Positions 3,473-10,473 of a DNA stretch of 10,473 bases are shown here, piece after piece. A program made the position numbers and the translations under genes. The first letter of the stretch is position 1, and each line of letters begins with the position of its first letter. The DNA comes from Acaryochloridaceae cyanobacterium VAR_48_metabat_390 (lineage in GTDB: Bacteria > Cyanobacteriota > Cyanobacteriia > Thermosynechococcales > Thermosynechococcaceae). Location: the NCBI GenBank assembly GCA_031422435.1, contig JANPLU010000132.1:1-10473 (forward strand), read 5' to 3'. Below the pieces are notes generated by a model. It made no database searches. It had not been told where the DNA came from and saw only the letters and a list, made by a program, of their open reading frames with translations.

Positions 3473-3551
3473 ATGCGTTTGACGTTTAGCCTTAATGACT
3501 ATGGGCTGGCGATCGCTTTCCATTTTACGTAAATCTGGTGAGATCGCCGGC

Positions 3552-3893
3552 TCAAAAGCTCTGCCTGATTTCAGCGATAACTGCCTTCAGAGCTGGAATT
3601 CCAGATTCAACAGTAGACTAAACCACAGCGACATCAATTCCCCAATATTCATGAACCAAAATATCTCTCATCCCAGCAATAGATTGCCAGGGAACCTGTG
3701 GATATCGCTTACGAATTTCATCAGGGATTTTCTTGACAGCTTCCCCTAAAATTTAAATCAATTTGGTGACAGCTAAAACTTTTTCTCGATTGCCTTGAAA
3801 CTGATCAAAGTCAACCCCATCCGTAAAAGATTCAATATCAGCAATAGCCTCCAAAATATCATCCAGATAGTCTGACAATGAGCGTTTCGTCAT
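3552..3893 (-). pseudogene. hepT: HepT/DUF86 HEPN RNase toxin, interrupted by two in-frame stop codons
   Basis: Manual translation from ATG 3893: MTKRSLSDYLDDILEAIADIESFTDGVDFDQFQGNREKVLAVTKLI*ILGEAVKKIPDEIRKRYPQVPWQSIAGMRDILVHEYWGIDVAVV*STVESGIPALKAVIAEIRQSF*. It has the RX4HXY motif (RDILVHEY) and an ATGA overlap with the upstream MNT gene. Confidence 0.92.
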
Positions 3894-4183
3894 ATATAAA
3901 CTACTTCGGATAAGACCTTCGCTTGAATTCTCGGTTTCAGTCCATTTTTTGTCACCAAATCAACCTTTAAGCCGACTTGTCTACTAAGATAATTTCGCAG
4001 TTCCACAAGTTGGAATAAAGTTGGAGCCTGCTCATAATCAATCAAAATATCTGGATCGCTCTCCGCCGTTTGTTCTCCCCTCGCATAGGAGCCAAAAATA
4101 CCTAGCTTCGTTACCTGATATTGCTCTCGCAATAGCGGCTTACTTTGACGCAAAACTTGCTTAAAATCATCTAATGTCTTCAT
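3890..4183 (-). CDS. mntA: Minimal nucleotidyltransferase, MntA-type antitoxin
   Basis: 97 aa with GSX10DXD motif (FGSYARGEQTAESDPD) and KVDLV; coupled to the HEPN gene. Confidence 0.9.
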   Translation of the reverse strand: MKTLDDFKQVLRQSKPLLREQYQVTKLGIFGSYARGEQTAESDPDILIDYEQAPTLFQLVELRNYLSRQVGLKVDLVTKNGLKPRIQAKVLSEVVYI

Positions 4184-4477: not shown

Positions 4478-4507
4478 TTGACGCGACTGGGATTATGTAG
4501 ATAGACT
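4478..4507 (+). promoter_or_regulatory. Putative sigma70-type promoter for the leuA leader
   Basis: TTGACG (4478-4483), 18-nt spacer, TAGACT (4502-4507); implied TSS near 4513-4515. Confidence 0.55.
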
Positions 4508-4534
4508 GCAATGAGTCGAACCGAACAGGTTTTT

Positions 4535-4609
4535 ATGAACACACAGCAGCGATCGCCCCACATCGTCACTAGCCAACTGCTTGGTCTAGGACTGCTGCTG
4601 CTGCCCTAG
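4535..4609 (+). CDS. Putative leucine leader peptide 1 (MNTQQRSPHIVTSQLLGLGLLLLP*)
   Basis: 24-aa uORF (alternative in-frame ATG at 4511). 7 of the last 10 codons are Leu (CTG CTT GGT CTA GGA CTG CTG CTG CTG CCC TAG). It lies upstream of leuA. Confidence 0.75.
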   Translation: MNTQQRSPHIVTSQLLGLGLLLLP

Positions 4610-4637
4610 CGCGCATATAGTGTTTCTCTAAATCGAC

Positions 4638-4663
4638 AAAGTATTTCACTAAAGTATTTCACT
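4638..4663. repeat. Perfect 13-bp tandem duplication AAAGTATTTCACT x2
   Basis: Read directly at 4638-4650 and 4651-4663. Confidence 0.9.
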
Positions 4664-4820
4664 TTTCATACTCTCAGGGTTTCGCTGGATGTCTACTCGT
4701 TAGGGCATTCAGTTCGCTCTTGATAAAGTTTTTGCCTCAAGCGCTGGCGAATCTAGCGTCTGTGAAGGGAGTAGTATCATCCATTTCTCTAAATCTTTTT
4801 CACCAAATCAGGAGACTGTT

Positions 4821-4955
4821 ATGCAGCTAAATCTATGGCTAAGACTGCGACTATTGGCGGGTTGTCTGACTCAATCCCTGCGGCACTCGGACAACCCTAG
4901 TTTTGCCACCAATATGTACTGCAAACCTAAAGCACGCTATCGATCATCATGTTGA
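4821..4955 (+). CDS. Putative leucine-rich leader peptide 2, overlapping the leuA start
   Basis: SD AGGAGA at 4810-4815 and ATG 4821 give 44 aa [44 protein letters not shown]. There are 8 Leu in the first 20 codons (4 CTA). The stop TGA 4953-4955 lies in ATGTTGA at the leuA start. Confidence 0.6.
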
Positions 4956-6791: not shown

Positions 6792-8183
6792 ATGAAACAA
6801 TGGCGTGTTTTTACGTGTGGGTTATGTGCTGCACTGTTAATTCTGGGCTGGGTTGCTCCGGCTTGGGCATTTTGTGGATTTTATGTGTCTAAGGCAGACA
6901 CCACATTATTTAACAAGGCTTCTCAAGTGGCGATCGCCCGTGACGGAAATCGCACCGTCATCACAATGGCAAACGACGTGCAGGGCAATATCAAAGATTT
7001 TGCCGTTGTTGTGCCTGTGCCAATGGTCTTAAAACAAGAGCAGGTTCACGTTGGCGACCCCAAAGTTCTCAAACGGCTCGATGCCTTTAGCGCCCCGCGC
7101 CTCGTAGAATATTTTGACGCGAATCCCTGTGAGCAGACTAGGCTATACGACCGCGTGATGTCTGCGGCACCGATGGCACAAGAGGCTGTCGGCGCAGCTA
7201 AAGCTCGATCAAGTAATGCGCTAGGGGTAACGGTAGAAGCCCAATTTAGCGTCGGTGAGTATGACATTGTGGTGCTGGGAGCCAAAGAATCTAACGGCCT
7301 TGAAACCTGGCTGGCTCAAAACGGCTACAAAATTCCCCGTGGTGCAGCGCCATTATTTCGCCCCTATATTCGCCAGAACATGAAGTTCTTTGTGGCAAAG
7401 GTGAACCTCAAAGAATTTAATAAGGCAGGTTTTGAATTTTTGCGCCCCATTCAAATGGCCTACGAATCGCCTAAGTTTATGCTGCCGATTCGTCTAGGAA
7501 TGATTAATGCAGGGACTGCTCAAGATTTAGTCGTGTATATTCTCTCCCCCAAAGGCCAAGCTGAAGTGGTCAACTACCGCACGGTCAATGTACCTTCCGA
7601 GGCAAATGTGCCGCTTTTTGTGAAACAGGAATTTGGCAAAGTCTACCCAGCCCTGTTTGGCACCGCCTATGACCGCGAAGGCCGCAACGTTGTTTTTCGA
7701 GAATATGCCTGGAATATGGGCAACTGCGACCCCTGCTCTGCCGACCCACTCACACCCGAAGAACTGCGGCAGGCAGGCGTGTTTTGGATGGATGAGCCAT
7801 CTCAGTCTCAACCTCAGCCTCGCGGCGGCGGACGGTTTGCGCCACCTTGGATGAGCAATAACGTCTTTATTACGCGGCTGCATGTGCGCTATACCCGCGA
7901 TAAGTTCCCTGAAGATTTGGTGTTTCAAGAAACCGCCAATCAGCAAAACTTTCAGGGTCGCTATGTGTTGACCCACCCCTACAAGGGTGAGCTGAGTTGT
8001 GCGGCAGGCAAGCAGTATAGGCGATCGCTTCCCGCCCGGTTTGAGAAAGAAGCCCAAACTTTAGCAAACCTAACGGGCTGGAATATTAGTGAGGTTCGCA
8101 AAAAGATGAATCTTCAGCAGCCCATCCCTGAAGGTTGGTGGCGTAAGCTATGGCGTAGCGTTGTTCCATCTTTTGTTGGATGA
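6792..8183 (+). CDS. DUF2330 domain-containing exported protein
   Basis: 463 aa with a signal peptide ending AWA, followed by FCGFYV...FNKASQV...MAND...DFAVVVPVP, MKFFVAKVNL, EYAW...CDPC and FITRLHVRY, recalled as typical of DUF2330. Confidence 0.85.
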   Translation: MKQWRVFTCGLCAALLILGWVAPAWAFCGFYVSKADTTLFNKASQVAIARDGNRTVITMANDVQGNIKDFAVVVPVPMVLKQEQVHVGDPKVLKRLDAFSAPRLVEYFDANPCEQTRLYDRVMSAAPMAQEAVGAAKARSSNALGVTVEAQFSVGEYDIVVLGAKESNGLETWLAQNGYKIPRGAAPLFRPYIRQNMKFFVAKVNLKEFNKAGFEFLRPIQMAYESPKFMLPIRLGMINAGTAQDLVVYILSPKGQAEVVNYRTVNVPSEANVPLFVKQEFGKVYPALFGTAYDREGRNVVFREYAWNMGNCDPCSADPLTPEELRQAGVFWMDEPSQSQPQPRGGGRFAPPWMSNNVFITRLHVRYTRDKFPEDLVFQETANQQNFQGRYVLTHPYKGELSCAAGKQYRRSLPARFEKEAQTLANLTGWNISEVRKKMNLQQPIPEGWWRKLWRSVVPSFVG

Positions 8184-8195
8184 ACGCCGTAAGCG

Positions 8196-8477
8196 CTACT
8201 CGTCTGGCTCTATGGTGCTGAGCAACCCGTGATTTTGAAGGGTTTCGCAGTAAAACTCGGCGTGTTCTAGCGCACAAACAATGACTAAAGCTAGTCCGTG
8301 GTTGTGCGCTTCCATCATGACGTTGAGTGCTTGCGGCTCGGTTAGGTTAGGGATCGTTTGGATCAGGATACCAACCACATACTCCATTGAGTTGAAGTCA
8401 TCGTTATGGAGCAGCACCTTATAGCGCGGCGCTAACTTACGAACCGTTGACGGCTTTGCTAAAATTTCGACAGACAT
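8196..8477 (-). CDS. clpS: ATP-dependent Clp protease adaptor ClpS
   Basis: 93 aa, YKVLLHNDDFNSMEYVV...MMEAHNHG...EHAEFYCETL...STIEPDE; SD AAAGGA upstream on the minus strand. Confidence 0.97.
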   Translation of the reverse strand: MSVEILAKPSTVRKLAPRYKVLLHNDDFNSMEYVVGILIQTIPNLTEPQALNVMMEAHNHGLALVIVCALEHAEFYCETLQNHGLLSTIEPDE

Positions 8478-8735: not shown

Positions 8736-8933
8736 ATGACTGCAATCACAATCAATATCTCTGATACCCGACTTAAAAAGTTGCAACAGCTAGCGAATGA
8801 AAGCGGCGTATCTCCTGAAGAGTTACTATGCGCCAGTGTTGAAGAATGGTTGAGCGGGTCAAAAGATGAATTTGATCAAGCGGCTAGCTATGTTTTGAAG
8901 AAAAATGCTGAACTCTACCAACGTTTAGCATAA
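8736..8933 (+). CDS. Small putative ribbon-helix-helix DNA-binding protein, probable antitoxin of Doc
   Basis: 65 aa with alternating strand TAITINISD, then helices, and C-terminus YVLKKNAELYQRLA. Strong SD AAAAGGAGA; TAATG overlap with doc. Confidence 0.75.
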   Translation: MTAITINISDTRLKKLQQLANESGVSPEELLCASVEEWLSGSKDEFDQAASYVLKKNAELYQRLA

Positions 8934-9316
8934 TGCGCTATTTGAAGCTTAAGGAAGTGATTGATCTGCATCATCAGGTGGTGGAGCAGTCGGGTGGCTC
9001 ATTGGGGATTCGTGATTTGGGTGCTTTGGAATCTGCTGTAGCACAGCCCTTGATGAGCTTTGGCGGCGAAGATTTGTACCCAACCTTAGAGGATAAAGCA
9101 GCGGCCTTAGGGTTTTCGCTGGTGATGAATCATCCATTTATAGACGGCAACAAGCGGATTGGACACGCTGCAATGGAAACGTTTTTGATTCTAAATGGGG
9201 TAGAGATTGATGCCTCTGTAGATGAGCAAGAGCAGGTCATTTTAAGTTTGGCAGCAGGACAGCTTGAACGTGAATCCTTCACCGAATGGTTAAAGCAGCA
9301 TATTAAGCCTGTTTGA
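8933..9316 (+). CDS. doc: Death-on-curing (Doc, Fic family) toxin
   Basis: 127 aa with GIRDLGALESAV and the Doc-type motif HPFIDGNKRIG. Confidence 0.92.
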   Translation: MRYLKLKEVIDLHHQVVEQSGGSLGIRDLGALESAVAQPLMSFGGEDLYPTLEDKAAALGFSLVMNHPFIDGNKRIGHAAMETFLILNGVEIDASVDEQEQVILSLAAGQLERESFTEWLKQHIKPV

Positions 9317-9378: not shown

Positions 9379-9930
9379 ATGGTTGTCACAACAGCAAAAT
9401 GGACGATTGATGAGTACCACCAAATGATCGCGGCGGGGCTTTTGGACGATCGCCGAGTGGAGCTATTAAATGGAGAAATTGTCGAGATGTCGCCAGAAGG
9501 CGAACCCAATGCCTACTCTTGCAGTGAGGTAGGAGATTATTTACGAGGTCGATTGGGCGACAAGGTCAAAATTAGAGAAGCGCACCCGATTACGCTACCG
9601 AATCATTCTGAGCCGGAGCCAGATATTGCGATCGCCCAACCCTTAGGACGAGAATACCTTCAGCATCACCCCTATCCCAAAAATATCTTTTGGCTGATTG
9701 AATACTCAGAATCTAGCCTAGATAAAGATCTGGAAACGAAACGACATCTTTATGCCGAAGTTCAAATTCCTGAGTATTGGGTCGTTAATCTCAAAAACAG
9801 AACGCTGATCATTTTTCGAGATCCTCAGAATGGAGATTATGGATCGAAGGTCACGCTATCGGAGGGGACGGTTTATGCGTTGGCGTTTCCAGAGATTGCT
9901 TTAGCCGTTGAGGCGATCATCAGTCTTTAG
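9379..9930 (+). CDS. Uma2 family putative restriction-endonuclease-fold protein
   Basis: 183 aa, WTIDEYHQM...RVELLNGEIVEMSP...SEPEPD...LIEYS...YAEVQIPEYWVVNL; SD AAGGAG. Confidence 0.92.
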   Translation: MVVTTAKWTIDEYHQMIAAGLLDDRRVELLNGEIVEMSPEGEPNAYSCSEVGDYLRGRLGDKVKIREAHPITLPNHSEPEPDIAIAQPLGREYLQHHPYPKNIFWLIEYSESSLDKDLETKRHLYAEVQIPEYWVVNLKNRTLIIFRDPQNGDYGSKVTLSEGTVYALAFPEIALAVEAIISL

Positions 9931-10051
9931 TTGATTTGATGACGAGAATCTTATTCATTGGTTGGGGTTCACATAAGCAAGGCGAGATCTGGGGCATCTG
10001 ATAGCATAGAAATATTATTAGGTTGGCTCCCAAATATGTTTGGAGGTTTCC

Positions 10052-10473
10052 ATGTCAACTGCCACGGTTCCTAAATTATCTGTTGATCAACTGTTACTAA
10101 ATGTGAGCCATGCCAAGCTAACCGTAACGCCAGAGCAATTTGACCAACTTTGTATCGACAACCCAGATCTACGTCTTGAACTAACAAAAGATGGCGAGTT
10201 GATTGTTATGGCTCCAGTGGGTGGTGAAAGTGGTGAGCGAAACCTAGATTTAGCAATCGATGTTGGGATCTGGAACCGACAAAGTAATTTAGGTCGAACC
10301 TTCGATTCATCAACGGGTTATGACTTCACCGCATTGGGTGGTGGCAAACTATCGCCAGATGTATCTTGGATTGAAAAGTCGCGGCTTGAGGGTATTGAAA
10401 TCGTCGGGTTTATTCCAGTGGTACCTGATTTTGTGATTGAGCTACGTTCTGCGACGGACAATTTGAAGCCGTT
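10052..10473 (+). CDS. Second Uma2 family protein, 3'-truncated by the window edge
   Basis: SD GGAGG at 10042-10046. Manual translation: MSTATVPKL...EQFDQLCIDNPDLRLELTKDGELIVMAP...FDSSTGYDF...SPDVSWI...PDFVIELRSATD; open to the window end and missing from the ORF track. Confidence 0.92.
   Translation, partial: MSTATVPKLSVDQLLLNVSHAKLTVTPEQFDQLCIDNPDLRLELTKDGELIVMAPVGGESGERNLDLAIDVGIWNRQSNLGRTFDSSTGYDFTALGGGKLSPDVSWIEKSRLEGIEIVGFIPVVPDFVIELRSATDNLKP

Follow-up and report, generated by a model that had tools for sequence, protein, structure and literature searches.

A conserved tandem of two leucine-codon leaders precedes the accessory leuA2 gene of cyanobacteria and betaproteobacteria

Introduction

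Why would a single gene for leucine synthesis be preceded by two separate leucine-rich upstream open reading frames (uORFs)? This question is raised by a stretch of 10,473 nucleotides from the genome of Acaryochloridaceae cyanobacterium VAR_48_metabat_390 (hereafter the window, to which all coordinates refer). The original prediction, made from the letters of the window, described a promoter-like sequence and two Leu-rich uORFs, each tied to RNA helices, ahead of leuA. It supposed that a shortage of charged Leu-tRNA is read twice, through an RNA switch after the first uORF and through coupling of the second uORF to leuA translation. In the literature that we searched, single leucine leaders have been reported in enterobacteria, streptococci, Campylobacter and actinobacteria. 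Our analysis confirmed the promoter-like site and both uORFs; the arrangement is real and conserved, two leucine-codon leaders standing in tandem before an accessory gene, leuA2, found in cyanobacteria and betaproteobacteria. The features are the following.

4478-4507, + strand: predicted sigma-70-type promoter, TTGACG-N18-TAGACT
4535-4609, + strand: uORF1, 24 codons, ending in LLGLGLLLLP, with its Leu codons at 4577-4603
4602-4615, + strand: short GC hairpin, its 5' arm beginning in the last uORF1 Leu codon; five pairs possible in 41/44 loci
4616-4675, + strand: pyrimidine/U-rich tract 3' of the uORF1 stop, seen in base composition across loci
4810-4814, + strand: Shine-Dalgarno (SD) site AGGAG of uORF2, -7.4 kcal/mol
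4821-4955, + strand: uORF2, 44 codons, with the core L-R-L-x-x-G-C
4845-4853, + strand: CTG CGA CTA (Leu-Arg-Leu), including the candidate sensor codon CTA at 4851-4853
4859-4897, + strand: stem 1 of element 2, 4859-4869 with 4887-4897, seen by covariation
4880-4909, + strand: predicted stem 2 of an H-type pseudoknot, 4880-4885 with 4904-4909, by aggregate score
4949-6664, + strand: leuA2, yeast/actinobacterial-type 2-isopropylmalate synthase (TIGR00970, 749 bits, cut-off 697)

The leuA2 gene and its surroundings

The gene call of the original prediction holds inasmuch as the product is a 2-isopropylmalate synthase; the gene is, however, an extra one of the yeast type and not the usual cyanobacterial leuA. 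In a profile scan, its product of 571 aa comprised HMGL-like, IPMS_D2 and LeuA_dimer domains, with the allosteric domain retained, and fell below the cut-off of the leuA_bact family. A second homologue, encoded on contig C32 and 28% identical to LeuA2, reads as the ordinary cyanobacterial LeuA, beside which leuA2 would be an additional copy. No Leu-run uORF was present within 270 nt upstream of this canonical gene. A sample of 401 cyanobacterial genomes included 7 with leuA2, and the gene occurs in 7/9 other genomes of the same genus.

A quick maximum-likelihood tree was built from 75 proteins; 13 redundant or partial loci were left out of it, the canonical leuA among them, and its outgroup branches are long. 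In this tree, the 35 cyanobacterial-clade sequences form a single branch (SH-aLRT 98), which joins (99) a betaproteobacterial branch of Methylophilaceae, Oxalobacteraceae and Zoogloea. The simplest reading of such a topology is that leuA2 was likely acquired by horizontal transfer from a betaproteobacterial neighbourhood. The same tandem leader precedes leuA2 in Methylophilaceae, Noviherbaspirillum and Zoogloea, and the arrangement is thus not peculiar to cyanobacteria. Five Paraburkholderia LeuA2 copies (L044, L050, L054, L060 and L062) stand without either leader element; three of these match residues 1-434 only and would be without the allosteric domain. A contig labelled Candidatus Paceibacteria (L071) carries leuA2 and a leader nearly identical to those of Actimicrobium (L073), and was likely mis-binned.

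The window also holds what we take, from the translations, to be an apcE-apcA-apcB-apcC region. Between apcC and leuA2 lies a small toxin-antitoxin insertion (3549-4183, - strand) composed of an intact MntA-type nucleotidyltransferase antitoxin and then a HepT-like gene interrupted by internal stop codons. This pair is not present in the closest relative (L001), in which apcC directly precedes the leader. Further along, we found a DUF2330 protein (6792-8183), a presumed clpS (8196-8477, - strand), a small ORF paired with a Fic/DOC gene (8736-9316) and Uma2-family genes (9379-10473, the last of them putative).

Conservation of the leader as a whole

Taken alone, the promoter pattern is no better than chance (3 sites found vs 1.5 +/- 1.1 in shuffles). 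Just 5' of uORF1, TTGAC-N16-18-TAnnnT stands in 24/31 cyanobacterial loci vs 1.5% of random 130-nt windows from the same loci. With the strict pattern, no promoter was found between uORF1 and uORF2 in any of the 16 tandem loci tested.

Conservation of both uORFs and of their Leu codons, which the original prediction set as a test, was borne out. In the 35 cyanobacterial-clade loci, uORF1 is present in 34 (29 recognised by script and 5 by eye, the 35th locus having just 310 nt upstream), uORF2 in 20 and both in 19. The spacer between the two elements varies from ~100 to 360 nt and is unalignable; at 64-93% protein identity, the loci nevertheless retain both cores together with the promoter, the SD and the phase. 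Of 2000 dinucleotide shuffles of the leader, 0.2% gave an ORF with 7/10 Leu and 0.05% gave a pair of this kind.

The helices assigned to each uORF fared unevenly: stem 1 of element 2 covaries strongly, while the uORF1 hairpin carries a C-C mismatch in the window and the leader as a whole does not fold better than its shuffles (z -0.55). No Rfam family reached its gathering score in the window or in five homologous loci (one chance match, E 2.3). As expected for the host, no Rho was found: TIGR00767 had no match in the genome, which is 99.99% complete.

Element 1

The frame of uORF1 might be longer, an in-frame ATG being found at 4511. Beyond the cyanobacterial clade, it is found in 14 proteobacterial-type loci. 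Among the 27,724 short ATG ORFs of the genome, it is the only one with at least 6 Leu in the last 10 codons, all of them CTN. Across 31 loci, 49% of the final 15 uORF1 codons specify Leu, compared with 9.7% of leuA codons, and TTA/TTG account for 3.9% of the uORF1 Leu codons vs 41% in leuA. Such a preference, together with the enrichment of CTA in uORF2 (see below), fits the sensing of Leu-tRNA supposed for the leader.

The fourth pair of the short hairpin is G-C in 39 and C-G in 4 of the 44 loci (the register of one of these 4 is doubtful); the copy in the window is the sole one of the 44 with a C-C mismatch and is weakened. The 30 nt past the uORF1 stop contain T at 0.36 and C at 0.19 in cyanobacteria, and C at 0.39 and T at 0.34 in betaproteobacteria. 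Within the spacer after uORF1, the window carries a 13-bp tandem duplication (4638-4663), which is a single copy in L001.

The RNA switch expected after uORF1 did not materialise, since no conserved terminator/antiterminator was found. Terminator-like sites after uORF1 were not enriched in cyanobacteria (13/30 spacers vs 14.0 expected from shuffles), were present in 5/13 betaproteobacterial spacers vs 2.4 expected, and the + strand of the window leader has no intrinsic terminator. Two further candidates were rejected. Pairing of the uORF1 Leu codons with 4699-4707 is not kept in L001, and a Rho-dependent attenuator is at odds with the genome lacking a Rho match and with the tract being U-rich here rather than C-rich.

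Element 1 is kept and element 2 is missing in L046-L061 (the Nodosilinea group), L003, L004, L036 and L049. These loci occupy several places in the tree, which suggests repeated loss of element 2.

Element 2

The SD of uORF2 reaches -4.5 kcal/mol or below in 28/30 loci whose uORF2 overlaps leuA, and the uORF2 start lies mostly 39-45 nt 5' of the stem. A CTN codon whose third position is free occurs in all 32 protein-selected loci, exactly 6 nt ahead of the stem's 5' arm. This candidate sensor is CTA in 8/20 cyanobacterial loci, vs 5.7% of the Leu codons of leuA, and in 7/12 other loci, vs 0.4%. The CGA codon is near-invariant (28/32 protein-selected loci). Besides tRNA-Arg(ACG), the genome has a gene for tRNA-Arg(TCG), a tRNA uncommon in cyanobacteria, which would read this CGA.

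Stem 1 comprises 10-11 pairs. In 31 sequences, 93.5% of its cells are paired and 22 cells are changed on both sides, and slid controls gave 24-50%. None of 500 shuffles scored as high, a count that overstates the significance, like the other shuffle counts given here, because the loci are related and not independent. For stem 2, in which the 3' part of the stem 1 loop would pair a short distance past the stem, the mean score over 65 representatives is 10.0 vs 7.6 +/- 0.3 when shuffled and 8.85 +/- 0.32 with partners swapped (0/500 in each control); this is an aggregate signal, weak per sequence (6/32 at p < 0.05). Its variants include GTGGC/GCCAC, GCGGC/GCCGC and GCGAC/GTCGC, with one mismatch in this genome. 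Based on this modelling, element 2 likely forms an H-type pseudoknot. An alternative hairpin, in which the L-R-L codons pair with the 5' arm of stem 1, is 88% paired, and covariation is absent from it.

In a DNA-only scan of metagenomes for element 2, 76/120 of the matches listed lie directly before leuA2. A uORF1-like frame was present upstream in 19/28 leuA-linked representatives vs 0/19 non-leuA matches, counted among the listed matches with enough upstream DNA. This set inherits the invariant bases of the search pattern, and invariance in it is partly built in. The RNA model of element 2 found one copy in the genome of the window and one in each of the five source genomes. In 151 Pseudomonadota genomes it gave 2 matches, one being a source genome and the other L221, a weaker match (L221:1500-1605, E 8.8e-6). 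A viral scan returned 1 match, not linked to leuA.

Element 2 also varies in the extent of its uORF. In L105, L113 and L192, the frame ends right after the sensor Leu codon, 5' of the stem. Achromobacter, Bordetella, Yanghanlia and Cupriavidus loci (L025, L027, L032, L034, L217) have element 2 only, with a longer uORF ending inside the stem.

The leuA start and its overlap with uORF2

In this genome and its lineage, no SD precedes leuA, and a strong one precedes uORF2. A leuA SD of -4.5 or below was found in 1/15 uORF1-only cyanobacterial loci; judging from these strengths, leuA2 in cyanobacteria is normally initiated de novo with no strong SD. Overlap and non-overlap loci do not differ in leuA SD strength (p 0.14).

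uORF2 overlaps leuA by 7 nt, its stop being the TGA of ATGTTGA, the beginning of leuA. It ends at +7 in 16/20 cyanobacterial loci and in 28/65 representatives, with 11 spacings and a single phase, and stops well upstream of leuA in 29/65 representatives. The stop at +7 is provided by the conserved first codons of leuA. Among 53 short-spacer loci, the +1 frame was open as often (36 vs 30), which makes an open frame alone weak evidence; in the 20 cyanobacterial loci, the frames were open in 19, 12 and 0. From the comparison of these loci we conclude that the overlap of uORF2 with the leuA start is selected and that it is not a universal output.

As modelled, the leuA start of the window is open in all three states (3.2, 3.6 and 4.4 kcal/mol), which excludes SD release as the output in this genome. 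The mean opening energies of the 65 representatives in the three states are 7.9, 7.2 and 7.6. With so small a shift and an open start in the window, there is no sign of an RNA switch acting at the leuA start. Modelling a stalled ribosome in four LEU-type comparison loci made this start easier to open by 1.7-7.9 kcal/mol, an effect that L109, L163 and L175, all of them overlap loci, retain in the model. Such coexistence of the overlap with activation by stalling argues against efficient reinitiation.

Pairing of 4855-4863 with leuA codons 3-6 was discarded, its effect being a mere 1 kcal/mol. A programmed -1 frameshift into leuA was rejected because the leuA frame is open in 0/20 cyanobacterial loci; there is no slippery heptamer either.

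Proposed mechanism

The scenario that we put forward is that two uORFs in series gauge charged Leu-tRNA and that stalling in leucine shortage would raise LeuA output; as a whole, we hold it with about even confidence. Its parts differ in strength. That both uORFs sense Leu-tRNA is the most secure, and we consider it quite probable; that stalling turns leuA on would be probable, though somewhat less so; that uORF2 acts by occluding the leuA start, with relief by stalling, is tentative and somewhat short of an even chance.

A single mRNA would begin just 3' of the promoter at 4478-4507. In the Leu run of uORF1, a stalled ribosome would cover the short GC hairpin beside the pyrimidine tract and let the transcript continue or survive without a classical terminator, our guess being protection from decay or premature release. 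uORF2 would then be loaded from its strong SD. When leucine is plentiful, ribosomes would unwind the stem, cross the leuA initiation region and terminate on ATGTTGA, and this termination traffic would exclude fresh 30S subunits from the leuA start. The 6-nt spacer would put stem 1 at the mRNA entry of a ribosome whose A site holds the Leu codon. With such geometry, a leucine-starved ribosome, its invariant Leu codon in the A site, would sit against the intact pseudoknot 6 nt ahead and, being held there, would leave the unstructured leuA start free.

The coupling to leuA foreseen in the original prediction survives insofar as the overlap is selected. In its plain, positive form it has the wrong sign, because a leucine-stalled ribosome would deliver fewer ribosomes to leuA, and occlusion would fit better. 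Repression by traffic over the leuA start is favoured on this ground, and also because three overlap loci keep the effect of stalling on the start and because uORF1-only loci have weak SDs. The absence of a leuA SD alongside the strong SD of uORF2 in the lineage of the window nevertheless fits positive reinitiation and counts against occlusion. The most far-reaching version of our scenario would be a Rho-free, two-sensor leucine gauge that moved from betaproteobacteria to cyanobacteria as a cassette of gene plus regulator, its second sensor being a rewired LEU-type pseudoknot that clears a repressive overlapping uORF. We consider this version, taken in full, unlikely but worth stating.

Alternative explanations

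The Leu-tRNA sensors might be the same and their output a different one, namely mRNA stability or transcript completion, with the stalled ribosomes and the pseudoknot shielding the message from ribonucleases. In betaproteobacteria, the shielding could be against Rho loading on the C-rich tract. In either case, the overlap of uORF2 would do no more than pass ribosomes to leuA. The hairpin and the single-stranded pyrimidine tract 3' of uORF1 in both phyla, and the shift of this tract from C-rich to U-rich in Rho-less hosts, speak for such an output, as do the lack of any terminator or SD sequestration and of a leuA SD in this lineage. The shift towards U, however, may just track genome GC content, and the opening of the start by stalling that some overlap loci retain would be left unexplained; we regard this output as improbable, if still deserving attention. 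A smaller chance is given to the idea that uORF2 activates leuA through termination-reinitiation and that its peptide, LRLxxGC[QR], arrests at high leucine or another metabolite, causing end-product repression. TnaC- and SpeFL-type arrest peptides are models for metabolite-dependent arrest of this kind. The conserved peptide core and near-invariant CGA codon would suit such an arrest, and so would the strong uORF2 SD, the lack of a leuA SD in this lineage and the phase-conserved ATGTTGA overlap. On the other hand, the enrichment of the rare CTA at the sensor points to tRNA limitation, loci that preserve the RNA stem have altered G-C-Q/R residues (L218 with R for C, L009 with S for G), and many homologues end inside or just past the stem, three of them immediately after the Leu codon.

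It is quite improbable, in our opinion, that the structures are protein-binding or riboswitch-like elements whose uORFs are translated only incidentally, a reading put forward earlier for actinobacterial LEU. This would agree with CGA and the stem being conserved at the nucleotide level and with the Streptomyces leader mutations of PMC1262725, which did not fit classical attenuation and for which a regulatory protein was proposed. It sits poorly with a conserved ATG with its SD, synonymous variation at both Leu codons, conserved phase and codon bias; moreover, the element persists in cyanobacteria, which would need the regulatory protein as well. Least probable of all, in our view, is that the leader came along with the transferred gene as a relic and serves no purpose in cyanobacteria. 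Element 2 is indeed missing in 15/35 loci, the hairpin of uORF1 has degenerated in the window, and the genome has a canonical leuA besides; a relic would hardly have kept its cores, SD, phase and promoter across the divergence given above while the spacer became unalignable. Overall, we retain the two-sensor gauge of charged Leu-tRNA as our working scenario.

Significance

If the leader is functional, an amino-acid sensor read by ribosomes can move between phyla together with its gene and go on working in a Rho-less host; if the scenario is true, it would be the first cyanobacterial leader-peptide amino-acid sensor in the literature searched. An old question, how terminator-less LEU-type pseudoknot leaders regulate leuA, is also made testable, as culturable hosts carry natural variants with uORF1 only, element 2 only or both, with and without the base stem and with and without the overlap. 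Finally, a compact leader that responds to leucine would be of use in engineering cyanobacteria.

Comparison with known leaders

Vitreschak et al. 2004 and Lopatovskaya et al. 2010 ('LEU1') reportedly predicted leuA leaders in alpha- and betaproteobacteria with Leu-codon peptides and a conserved structure, said to have no classical terminator before leuA. Elements 1 and 2, taken singly, may already be among them; neither study is known to contain a tandem, a cyanobacterial case or a leader that overlaps the leuA start. The literature that we searched, whose scope does not extend to these two studies, yielded no tandem Leu leader and no cyanobacterial leader-peptide amino-acid sensor. By a search listing, 'leuA' is absent from the main text of PMC11109978, the supplement of which may bear on novelty; there is no leuA in the main text or one supplement of PMC8632094, and no matching element in the available parts of PMC10117765, PMC6123439 and PMC4974804.

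The closest comparison is with the actinobacterial LEU element of Seliverstov et al. 2005 (PMC1262725), in which a Leu-run uORF is combined with a pseudoknot and with a base stem that pairs the Leu run to the leuA SD. As in that description, the enzyme downstream is of the same subfamily, a Leu-codon uORF runs into a predicted pseudoknot, and there is no intrinsic terminator. The Streptomyces leader peptide, MRFGLLLLSCRGEGL, enters the stem with S-C-R (leader from PMC8079986). By eye, a Microbacterium leader (L214) matches it, with the same S-C-R at stem entry, where element 2 has G-C-Q/R. A Shinella leader has LLLLGLTRGCRVR, where element 2 has LRLxxGC[QR], and alphaproteobacterial and other loci (L215, L218 and L009) look intermediate between LEU and element 2.

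Unlike the LEU element, element 2 has its Leu run reduced to L-R-L plus a two-codon spacer, with a Leu-rich N-terminal half; uORF2 continues over the leuA start rather than stopping in the pseudoknot, and a second, unrelated Leu uORF stands upstream. The base stem between Leu run and SD was not found in the window (duplex -5.7 kcal/mol, p 0.78; L214 -14.1, L215 -16.6), and 3/65 representatives had it at p <= 0.05; the shuffle test is of low power, the controls L214 and L215 themselves giving p 0.16 and 0.13, while opening energies separate the window from these controls. The element-2 model R1 had no match at E <= 1 on L214 or L215. As the base stem is absent and R1 misses the actinobacterial and Shinella leaders, we do not assign element 2 to the LEU element, and homology between the two is inferred. 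Element 2 may nevertheless work like LEU, and it may descend from it.

In the leuL attenuators of E. coli and Streptococcus (PMC5314783) and in Campylobacter LeuL (PMC3847290), a short uORF with clustered, often rare Leu codons likewise precedes leuA, and stalling serves as the sensor. Here, in contrast with these attenuators, there is no conserved terminator/antiterminator and no Rfam match, and there are two uORFs instead of one. The polycysteine sORF attenuators of mycobacteria (bioRxiv 10.1101/834739) provide a tested example of a stalled ribosome that activates downstream translation without a terminator; by analogy, this is likely the logic of ancestral element 2. In that system, an SD paired to the sensor codons is released, an arrangement not seen in the window, and the mycobacterial attenuators are leaderless and have a single sensor. 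Lastly, if a pseudoknot-braked ribosome does clear the repressive overlapping uORF2, the leader described here would be a bacterial counterpart of eukaryotic overlapping-uORF control.
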